Origin: Escherichia phage ETEC-TG
DNA length: 64,000 bases
Reading direction: 5' to 3' (one strand)
Sequence record: OR786310.1
Shown here: piece after piece, positions 35,193 through 37,357 of the stretch
Layout: each line of letters starts with the position of its first letter
Position numbering within the stretch: the first letter of the stretch is position 1
Made by a program: the position numbers and the translations under genes
The notes under the pieces: generated by a model
What the model was told of the DNA's origin: nothing
Databases searched by the model: none
The model's input: only the letters and a program-made list of their open reading frames with translations

Positions 35193-35267
35193 GGCCCTGT
35201 AGCTCAATGGGAGAGCTGTCGGCTCATAACCGATAGGTAGCTGGATCGAAACCAGCCAGGGCCACCA
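35193..35267 (+). tRNA. tRNA-Met (CAT)
   Basis: Manual cloverleaf: acceptor GGCCCTG/CAGGGCC, anticodon loop CTCATAA, T-stem GCTGG/CCAGC, encoded CCA. Confidence 0.65.
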
Positions 35268-35540: not shown

Positions 35541-35570
35541 TTGACAACTAACATTATTTTATGTTAGATT
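35541..35570 (+). promoter_or_regulatory. sigma70-like promoter (TTGACA, 18 nt, TAGATT) internal to tRNA array
   Basis: -35 TTGACA 35541..35546, -10-like 35565..35570, 8 nt upstream of tRNA-Ser. Confidence 0.4.
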
Positions 35571-35578
35571 ATAAGTAT

Positions 35579-35669
35579 GGAAGGGCAAATCGACGTGGCG
35601 ACGAAAACGGTCTTGAAAACCGCCGAGCTTGAAAGAGCCTTGGGAGTTCGACTCTCCCTCCTTCCGCCA
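35579..35669 (+). tRNA. tRNA-Ser (TGA), class II
   Basis: Acceptor GGAAGGG/TCCTTCC, anticodon loop CTTGAAA, long variable arm, T-arm GGGAG-TTCGACT-CTCCC, discriminator G, CCA. Confidence 0.6.
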
Positions 35670-35673
35670 GATT

Positions 35674-35759
35674 GGTAGATTGGTGAAATGGTAGCCACGA
35701 CAGTTTGCTAAACTGTAGTCGGAAACGGCGTGTAGGTTCGAGTCCTACATCTACCGCCA
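35674..35759 (+). tRNA. tRNA-Ser (GCT), class II
   Basis: Acceptor GGTAGAT/ATCTACC, anticodon stem-loop ACAGT-TTGCTAA-ACTGT, long variable arm, discriminator G, CCA. Confidence 0.6.
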
Positions 35760-35900
35760 AGTTCTTTTTAATATAGCTTACTTTAGCAGAGTAAATCTTC
35801 GGCAAGTGGCGGTAACCACTTTACCGATAACTCATAGTTAGTGGTGTGAACACTGGCTATTTTAAAAAGAATTTAAAAAGAATTTAAATATTAGTATTTA

Positions 35901-35988
35901 GGTGAGTTAATTCCGTAGGGGTAGCGGGGCAGACTGTAAATCTGTTATCATTGCGATTCGGGTGGTTCGACTCCATCACTCACCACCA
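35901..35988 (+). tRNA. tRNA-Tyr (GTA), class II
   Basis: Acceptor GGTGAGT/ACTCACC, anticodon stem-loop GCAGA-CTGTAAA-TCTGT, long variable arm, discriminator A, CCA; extra nucleotides between acceptor and D-stem. Confidence 0.55.
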
Positions 35989-35994
35989 AATTAA

Positions 35995-36080
35995 GATGAG
36001 TTGGCTGAATGGTTTAAGCGGCGGACTGTTAATCCGTGTTCGAAAGAACGATATAGGTTCAAATCCTATACTCATCGCCA
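35995..36080 (+). tRNA. class II (long variable arm) tRNA with GTT anticodon (Asn codons)
   Basis: Acceptor GATGAGT/ACTCATC, D-stem GCT/AGC, anticodon stem-loop GCGGA-CTGTTAA-TCCGT, variable hairpin GTTC-GAAA-GAAC, T-arm ATAGG-TTCAAAT-CCTAT, discriminator G, CCA. Confidence 0.55.
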
Positions 36081-36087
36081 GAATTAT

Positions 36088-36165
36088 GGACTTGTAGAGT
36101 TAAGGTAAACCCCCAGTCGCCAAGAGGCTTCTGGAATTGCAGGTATCGAATCCTGCCGAGTCCCA
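36088..36165 (+). ncRNA. irregular tRNA-like element (anticodon region not canonical)
   Basis: Acceptor GGACTTG pairs with CGAGTCC; T-arm GCAGG with 8-nt loop TATCGAAT; the anticodon position is a 4-bp stem CCAG/CTGG enclosing 14 nt; fills the slot between two tRNAs. Confidence 0.3.
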
Positions 36166-36170
36166 GCTTT

Positions 36171-37333: not shown

Positions 37334-37357
37334 AGCCTCCTTATTGGAGGCTTTTTG
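37334..37357 (+). terminator. intrinsic terminator closing the tRNA array
   Basis: AGCCTCC-ttatt-GGAGGCT followed by TTTTT. Confidence 0.65.

Follow-up and report, generated by a model that had tools for sequence, protein, structure and literature searches.

A tRNA gene of 86 nt lies at positions 35995..36080, on the + strand, of a 64,000-nucleotide stretch of Escherichia phage ETEC-TG (sequence record OR786310.1); this stretch, at its full length, is referred to as the window. The gene reads as an asparagine tRNA, tRNA-Asn(GUU), and presents a long variable arm. According to the textbooks, long variable arms in bacteria are found only in the Leu, Ser, Tyr and Sec tRNAs. Bacterial tRNA-Asn is class I (the E. 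coli molecule has 76 nt), and the initial annotation, made from the sequence letters, was right to regard the arm as unusual. When run on the window, ARAGORN returns a tRNA-Asn (gtt) at exactly 35995..36080 (+), which is the same anticodon and the same extent as had been assigned by manual folding. The gene and its parts are the following.

35995..36080, + strand: whole tRNA-Asn(GUU) gene, 86 nt, with long variable arm and encoded CCA (ARAGORN, Rfam, fold)
35995..36001, + strand: 5' strand of the acceptor stem, GAUGAGU, with the pairs G1:C72, A2:U71 and U3:A70 (sequence, parse)
36004..36019, + strand: D arm GCUGAAUGGUUUAAGC, three Watson-Crick pairs (GCT/AGC), G13 opposite A22 (sequence, fold)
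36021..36037, + strand: anticodon stem-loop GCGGA-CUGUUAA-UCCGU, equal to positions 27-43 of E. coli tRNA-Asn
36028..36030, + strand: anticodon GUU (GTT in DNA), placed by ARAGORN at position 34 (sequence, ARAGORN)
36038..36052, + strand: variable region GTTCGAAAGAACGAT, 15 nt, a 4-bp GUUC/GAAC stem with a GAAA tetraloop (fold, covariation)
36053..36069, + strand: T arm AUAGG-UUCAAAU-CCUAU (Rfam alignment, fold)
36070..36080, + strand: 3' strand of the acceptor stem, ACUCAUC, then G73 (36077) and CCA (36078..36080) (sequence)

Every element of the standard cloverleaf that had been proposed, from the individual stems and the T arm to G73 and the CCA end, is present in the sequence, with agreement among ARAGORN, Rfam and RNAfold. 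The Rfam model RF00005 matches 35995..36077 over model positions 1-71 with 62.0 bits (E=2.6e-12; the gathering threshold is 29 bits), and its alignment opens an insertion of approximately 12 nt in the variable region. Folded at minimum energy, the 86 nt form the four arms of a cloverleaf and, in the variable region, a fifth hairpin, ((((....)))), as had been claimed for GTTC-GAAA-GAAC. Both Rfam and the fold give the canonical layout of a 7-bp acceptor stem and a 5-bp T stem. The residues U8 and G9 stand before the D arm, the anticodon loop has U33-G34-U35 and A37, and the variable arm leaves no unpaired base on its 5' side and three (GAU) on its 3' side. The z-score of the single-sequence fold is only -1.71, a value that is usual for single tRNAs. 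The open reading frames overlapping 35995..36080 all have non-ATG starts and reach at most 48 amino acids.

Ten tRNAs are called by ARAGORN between 35193 and 37218 of the window, each of them on the + strand. In agreement with the initial annotation, a conventional tRNA-Asn is absent from these calls, and the long-arm gene is the only Asn tRNA in the window. The cluster is 96-99% identical to those of Phapecoctavirus genomes (phAPEC8-like coliphages of the Stephanstirmvirinae), with vB_EcoM_ASO2A as the top match at 99.2%; near-identical GenBank records annotate the gene as tRNA-Asn-GTT. A relative's 149-kb record, in which the cluster is 99.2% identical, has the same ten tRNAs and no second Asn tRNA by ARAGORN, which argues that the long-arm tRNA is the only Asn decoder of the phage. 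The long open reading frames of the window use 54 Asn codons (AAY) per 1000, and the GC content of the window is 38.9%.

A phage family with a covarying arm

Comparison with related phage tRNA arrays, a check that had been suggested at the outset, reveals that the long-arm tRNA-Asn recurs. In a BLAST search of 50,697 phage records, 225 cover at least 80% of the 86-nt tRNA, and an 83-nt long-arm version is found in about 290 T5-like records, T5 itself not being among them. The tool-confirmed members from phi92 (85 nt), an Epseptimavirus (86 nt), the T5-like phage AKFV33 (83 nt) and a Proteus Novosibvirus (85 nt) all have GTT, G73, CCA and the extra hairpin. A search pattern in which an E. coli-like Asn anticodon arm is followed after 12-22 nt by GGTTCRA has 88 matching stretches in IMG/VR; a scan of the same collection for class I Asn tRNAs gives at least 120. 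Together with other fetched loci, the 88 stretches provide a set of 69 distinct long-arm Asn tRNAs of 79-91 nt, located mostly inside multi-tRNA clusters. The family is defined by GUU, G73, the 7/5 layout of acceptor and T stems, and a hairpin in the variable region, with 2-6 bp and in most cases 3-4, that is usually GNRA-capped and followed on its 3' side by approximately three unpaired bases. All of these features are found in the window tRNA, which is grouped with the 68 other distinct sequences.

Among one genome each of 185,579 species, the same pattern has only 21 matches. The genuine tRNAs among these are in arrays of 30-plus tRNAs (Micromonospora, Verrucosispora) or in phage-like clusters of metagenome-assembled genomes (MAGs). 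None of 5,426 E. coli genomes yields a BLAST match to 80% or more of the tRNA; the only one returned is a spurious 35-nt match in yobD. The long-arm tRNA-Asn is a widespread phage family and not a one-off.

The case for selection on the arm comes from 28 distinct family members having variable regions of 15 nt, which were aligned for covariation. All four arm pairs have changed on both sides, and 92% of the arm-helix cells are in standard pairs. Over the three helices that were counted, 96.7% of the cells are paired; sliding the 3' partners by 1-3 columns lowers this share to 31-43%. The observed covariation score was reached by none of 500 shuffles. The compensatory changes are seen directly in the arm stems of the window tRNA and the confirmed members (GUUC/GAAC, GAAC/GUUC, AUCC/GGAU and GUC/GAC). 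The loop is GAAA in 37 of the 69 members, of the GNRA type in 47 and UUCG in three. The unpaired bases flanking the arm on its 5' and 3' sides number 0 and 3 in 37 members and 1 and 4 in 14, compared with the usual 1 and 1 in phage tRNA-Ser, 1 and 3 in tRNA-Tyr and 1 and 2 in tRNA-Leu. The arm stem has 4 bp in the window tRNA and 4-7 bp in phage Ser tRNAs. Counts for the 15:48 tertiary pair are mixed (G15:C48 in 20, A15:U48 in 6), and the D-loop numbering on which they depend is unreliable. By these sequence comparisons, the extra arm is best read as a selected structural feature common to a large phage family.

Several observations were made alongside. The Verrucosispora and Micromonospora chromosomal arrays (three loci, each with more than 30 tRNA genes) hold a 90-nt long-arm tRNA-Asn with U1:A72 and G73. 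Seven loci from Saprospiraceae and other Bacteroidota MAGs match the pattern without a tRNA call by ARAGORN. At one of them (L102:5498-5796), three copies of the pattern stand 128 nt apart and adjoin a normal 75-nt tRNA-Asn; the matches without a call may be repeated partial copies of tRNA-Asn.

Hairpin variable arms are seen also on other class I isotypes in phage clusters, namely Thr(UGU) at 83-87 nt (for example in two T5-like contigs), Trp(CCA) at 84-87 nt, Glu(UUC), Cys(GCA), Lys(UUU) and especially Ile(UAU), with examples in seven further loci and others. A length of at least 80 nt is reached by 24 of the 714 distinct non-Asn tRNAs of class I isotypes in these loci and by 13 of 489 in control loci, that is by approximately 3%, most of them through a hairpin arm. 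The phage tRNA-Ile(UAU) genes, from thirteen loci, are mostly 91-97 nt long, with A73, the 7/5 layout and a variable region of 22-25 nt in which a CCAGAUUAGCG-like motif recurs (CCAGAUUAG or CCAGAUAAG, sometimes CUAGAU...). The commonest of the allo-tRNAs is allo-tRNA(UAU), which has an 8/4 layout (PMC5389517).

Asparagine or serine: the charging identity

The requirements of the E. coli asparaginyl-tRNA synthetase (AsnRS) are the three anticodon bases and G73 (PMC9976931), and the window tRNA presents all of them as G34, U35, U36 and G73. Its positions 26-43 (GGCGGACUGUUAAUCCGU) are identical to those of E. coli tRNA-Asn, a reference sequence that we verified in 5425 of 5426 genomes. The two share A37 as well, and the U33-G34-U35 context used for queuosine. 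They differ in the variable region (a 5-nt loop, AUGUC, in the host; the hairpin arm in the window tRNA), in the first acceptor pair (U1:A72 versus G1:C72) and in the D stem, which has 4 bp in the host and 3 bp, plus G13 opposite A22, in the window tRNA. A further difference is G9 in the window tRNA. With 15 nt in place of the short loop of 4-5 nt, its variable region is outside the class I form of tRNA-Asn.

In bacterial tRNA-Ser, G1:C72 and G2:C71 are conserved and C2:G71 is an antideterminant against seryl-tRNA synthetase (SerRS); U1:A72 is a hallmark of bacterial tRNA-Asn and the GatCAB identity pair (PMC9976931). We counted these features in the long-arm Asn family and in the phage Ser, Tyr and Leu tRNAs of the same loci; G73 was not part of the family search pattern.

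G73: long-arm Asn 64/69; phage Ser 40/70 (p=1.2e-6); Tyr 0 and Leu 0 (both all A73)
U1:A72: long-arm Asn 41/69; phage Ser 0/70; Tyr 0/37; Leu 0/43
G2:C71: long-arm Asn 31/69; phage Ser 67/70; Tyr 19/39; Leu 11/44
A3:U70: long-arm Asn 4/69; phage Ser 63/70; Tyr 13/39; Leu 11/44
C2:G71: long-arm Asn 26/69; phage Ser 0/70; Tyr 10/39; Leu 32/44

The window tRNA has the G1:C72 pair conserved in bacterial tRNA-Ser, but A2:U71 and U3:A70 in the next two positions, and so lacks the Ser acceptor signature (G2:C71 and A3:U70). Two neighboring genes are the natural terms of comparison for it.

35674..35759: phage tRNA-Ser(GCU), the tRNA of the cluster most similar to tRNA-Asn
35901..35988, + strand: tRNA-Tyr(GUA), 88 nt, upstream of tRNA-Asn with a 6-nt spacer (Rfam, 39 bits; ASO2A annotation)

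The phage tRNA-Ser(GCU) has the length of the tRNA-Asn (86 nt), equal element lengths, a 4-bp arm stem and a GAAA loop. The two anticodons are one base apart (GCU versus GUU), and identity outside the anticodon arm is 64%. The Ser gene is distinguished by G2:C71, by 1 and 2 unpaired bases flanking its arm and by another anticodon stem; the corresponding features of the Asn gene are A2:U71, 0 and 3 flanking bases and the anticodon stem of the host tRNA-Asn. Bacterial tRNA-Tyr(GUA) resembles the window tRNA in its long arm, its arm stem of 3-4 bp, its approximately three unpaired 3' bases, G34 and U35. It is set apart by A73 (39/39 in the phage Tyr tRNAs) and by A36 in its GUA anticodon, where the window tRNA has G73 and U36.

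The anticodon arm had been described as one base from that of the adjacent tRNA-Tyr. This statement holds for the loop. Over the 17-nt arm the difference is at three positions (A29:U41 to G29:C41, and A36 to U36). The relationship between the two genes at which it hinted is superficial. Each phage anticodon arm copies its own E. coli counterpart (the Asn arm is identical, the Tyr arm matches at 16/17 positions), which makes the likeness host mimicry and not ancestry.

From this comparison of sequences we infer that the window tRNA is most likely charged with Asn, and that charging by AsnRS is more likely than charging by SerRS. The counts point to a family of true Asn tRNAs with an acquired hairpin, unlike Ser tRNAs with a changed anticodon. 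The ambiguity of charging identity that the initial annotation had stressed is real in principle, given the precedent of the allo-tRNAs (PMC5389517); the comparative evidence points to Asn. We thus favor, at a probability of approximately 0.6, a functional phage-encoded asparagine tRNA that combines the Asn identity set with a GNRA-capped variable hairpin, the arm being under selection. Transcription would take place as part of the phage tRNA cluster, with a Tyr-Asn transcript as the probable precursor. The host AsnRS would read G34, U35, U36 and G73 and attach asparagine, and the product would decode AAC and AAU in an AT-rich phage with a usage of approximately 54 Asn codons per 1000. As a more tentative guess, the arm may alter how host tRNA-binding factors (for example, tRNA-targeting defense nucleases) see the tRNA, with AsnRS recognition left intact.

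Several points weigh against this assignment. AsnRS is a class IIb enzyme, and such enzymes approach the tRNA from the variable-loop side, so its tolerance of the arm is not guaranteed. The covariation of the arm could mean structural upkeep of a once-neutral insertion and not an adaptive function. The combination of G73 and a long arm also suits SerRS, and the T5-like family members carry G1:C72 and G2:C71. Serine is inserted in E. coli by long-arm allo-tRNAs that have G73 or U73 and the anticodons of other amino acids (PMC5389517).

These last points lead to the possibility of a Ser-accepting or dual Asn/Ser tRNA, in which SerRS would recognize the arm and G73, irrespective of the anticodon, and place Ser at AAC and AAU as a missense recoding. 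For tRNA-Ser the long variable arm, by its size and orientation, is the major determinant, and SerRS might accept the present one. To the long arm and G73 the window tRNA adds C11:G24, its closest relative in the cluster is the tRNA-Ser(GCU) described above, and the allo-tRNAs deliver Ser at Leu codons with just such arms and discriminators (PMC5389517). On profile hidden Markov models it scores slightly higher as Ser than as Tyr (18.2 versus 13.2 bits); the training set of the Ser profile includes the neighbor of the window tRNA itself, however, and the profile scores are all weak. Against serine stands the lack of G2:C71 and A3:U70, present in 96% and 90%, respectively, of phage Ser tRNAs. 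The short arm stem (4 bp) is flanked as in Tyr tRNAs (0 and 3) and not as in Ser tRNAs (1 and 1), G73 is kept far more strictly in the family than in Ser tRNAs, U1:A72 (41/69) never occurs in the latter, and the anticodon stem-loop is that of host tRNA-Asn. As this is the sole Asn decoder of the phage, a systematic change of Asn to Ser would strike every phage protein. The allo-tRNAs of Mukai et al. (PMC5389517) share with the window tRNA the long variable arm, G73, a foreign anticodon and mobile or phage contexts. They have 8/4 or 9/3 acceptor and T stems and a Sec-like D arm, in contrast to the canonical 7/5 layout and the Asn-specific determinants seen here. We regard charging with serine as improbable. 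More improbable still is a pseudogene without function, or a software call on a tRNA-like sequence. The modest fold z-score would suit such an element, and degenerate copies do exist in the family (in the copy of phage Bas34/SelmaRatti the acceptor stem is broken, and ARAGORN makes no call). The window gene, however, has all of its stems intact, a canonical T loop, an encoded CCA and an Rfam score of 62 bits. It is 96-100% conserved among Phapecoctavirus records, shows compensatory changes across genera, and supplies the sole Asn tRNA of the phage.

The surroundings of the gene in the tRNA cluster

Further features of the region are given below.

35541..35570, + strand: promoter-like site upstream of the Ser-Ser-Tyr-Asn-Thr block (weak; a consensus match only)
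about 35579..35668, + strand: tRNA-Ser(TGA)-like gene, annotated tRNA-Ser-TGA in ASO2A and missed by ARAGORN
36088..36168, + strand: tRNA-like element directly downstream of tRNA-Asn, homologous to T5 'rna3' (alignment with T5, AKFV33 and phi92)
37334..37352, + strand: terminator-like hairpin downstream of the final tRNA of the cluster (the ASO2A record annotates a rho-independent terminator directly behind its final cluster tRNA)

Promoter-like sites are no more numerous in this region than in shuffled sequence. The tRNA-Tyr and the tRNA-Asn probably share one precursor transcript. ARAGORN does not call the tRNA-Tyr at 35901..35988, which has an odd D arm; it is labeled tRNA-Tyr in some relatives (tRNA-Tyr-GTA in ASO2A) and 'tRNA-Pseudo-GTA' in one. 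The top Rfam match of the tRNA-Ser(TGA)-like gene is tRNA-Sec at 37.4 bits, under the threshold of 47, and its phi92 counterpart is flagged as a pseudogene. The tRNA with a CAT anticodon at 35193..35267 (+) is Met according to ARAGORN and tRNA-Ile-CAT (the lysidine-type Ile) according to ASO2A.

The spacer of approximately 125 nt between tRNA-Ser(GCU) and tRNA-Tyr (35760..35885, +) is well conserved with phi92 and has segments capable of forming hairpins. Just after this spacer, phi92 has an inserted tRNA-Lys(UUU), which the window lacks. The element at 36088..36168 has acceptor-like and T-arm-like helices, with a long hairpin replacing the 'anticodon' (fold z=-2.6). The T5 annotation describes rna3 as a 'putative tRNA-like RNA'. 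Homologous sequences follow tRNA-Asn in AKFV33 and phi92 also, so that an Asn-plus-rna3 module is common to two phage families.

T5 and the ETEC-TG phage are alike in encoding an Asn decoder with an rna3-like element after it. In T5 the tRNA-Asn(GUU) occupies the slot Cys - Asn - rna3-like - Asp, which in most other T5-like phages is the slot of the long-arm Asn gene; AKFV33 and an Epseptimavirus have the long-arm tRNA-Asn in the Cys-Asn-Asp slot where T5 has a class I gene. This T5 tRNA-Asn (NC_005859, L235:6953-7030 (-)) has 78 nt and a poorly paired anticodon stem, GCAUC/GUUGA. The open reading frame T5.069 overlaps its 5' end. The T5 protein T5.081, annotated 'tRNA amidotransferase', was considered as a partner protein and set aside, as the window has no homologue of it.

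Origin and possible role of the arm

PARIS, retron effectors, PrrC and the Schlafens are newly described defense systems that act on tRNAs. The AriB nuclease of PARIS, whose primary target is tRNA-Lys(UUU), cuts E. coli tRNA-Asn at 40|41, and its recognition extends to the D loop and 'other parts of the tRNA'; the Lys, Thr and Asn tRNAs of T5 jointly neutralize PARIS (PMC12409363). The cut site is three bases from the start of the arm. Evasion of host tRNA-binding or tRNA-targeting factors is our leading guess for what the arm does, one that we hold tentatively. Stabilization of the tRNA, or a neutral insertion that has become integrated, would together be about as likely or slightly less so.

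A role specific to PARIS is not supported for the ETEC-TG phage, because the AriB site of its tRNA-Asn is host-like and a tRNA-Lys(UUU), present in the corresponding slot of phi92, is missing. Phage 'escape' tRNAs of the T5 tRNA-Lys and tRNA-Asn type carry substitutions at this site. In T5 the change in the anticodon stem alters the AriB site, whereas the window tRNA keeps positions 36-41 as in the host and carries the extra arm instead. We therefore set aside the PARIS rescue data as evidence for the long-arm type: the T5 tRNA-Asn is a class I molecule with a mutated anticodon stem, and results obtained with it are not transferable to the window tRNA. The tRNA-Asn of phage Bas34 is insufficient against PARIS, and an extra tRNA-Asn is needed (PMC12409363). 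Bas34 is phage SelmaRatti (MZ501103), in which the annotation of the tRNA-Asn (77 nt) omits the first 6 nt. The complete gene (L242:8599-8681, + strand), which ARAGORN does not call, belongs to the long-arm Asn type, but its acceptor stem is broken (GGGUCGU versus ACCCGCU) and its position 32 is U. The broken stem makes the Bas34 result uninformative on the long arm, and it may explain why that phage needs the extra tRNA-Asn.

It is possible, though in our view less likely, that the molecule is a true tRNA-Asn with an arm that plays no part in anti-defense, being the relic of an insertion or of class II descent, or a core stabilizer of a quickly produced, under-modified, AT-rich phage tRNA. 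Covariation proves only that pairing has been kept, and the loops are of the thermodynamically stable GNRA or UUCG types. The host-like AriB site and the missing tRNA-Lys(UUU) would fit this explanation, as would the bodies of the family, which when averaged score best on the tRNA-Tyr profile (60/69), and the Tyr-like arm flanks. However, a similar hairpin, in arms of 11-19 nt, is found on very different Asn acceptor stems (U1:A72 and G1:C72) and on the Thr, Trp, Glu, Lys, Cys and Ile(UAU) tRNAs of phage clusters, and it is nearly absent from cellular chromosomes. This recurrence on diverse Asn backbones and other isotypes, together with near-confinement to mobile elements, suggests a phage-specific advantage.

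As to descent, a recent duplication of a neighboring class II tRNA was considered and discarded, since the nearest-isotype analysis within loci gave no consistent answer and hence no backing for recent Tyr or Ser ancestry. Profile models for phage Ser, Tyr and Leu tRNAs place the window tRNA best as Ser and the family best as Tyr, with weak scores. The U1:A72 acceptor stems, of Asn type and present in 41 of the 69 members, argue for insertion of a hairpin into Asn tRNAs over an anticodon change in a class II tRNA.

A broader proposal, which we advance with considerable reserve, is that a hairpin in the variable region offers phages a structural, and not a sequence-level, route to tRNAs that are charged by host synthetases yet spared by immune nucleases or toxins. 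This route would be recurrent for tRNA-Asn and occasional for Thr, Lys, Trp, Glu, Cys and Ile(UAU). If this were so, AsnRS, a class IIb synthetase, would have to tolerate a class-II-type arm; shape-based escape from tRNA-targeting defense is directly testable with simple constructs.

The gene, like its relatives, is already in public records under the plain label 'tRNA-Asn'; its architecture is without a description in the literature that we searched, the older T5/BF23 tRNA papers being outside its reach. In a well-studied group of coliphages, Asn decoding by phage tRNA depends solely on an arm-bearing molecule, and hundreds of phage genomes contain its relatives. If AsnRS does charge this tRNA, then the enzyme accepts a bulky arm on the side where class II synthetases meet their tRNA, an arm alone confers no Ser identity when the acceptor signature is missing, and phages have reason to remodel the shape of their tRNAs. 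The scaffold could serve as a naturally orthogonal-looking, yet host-chargeable, tRNA.

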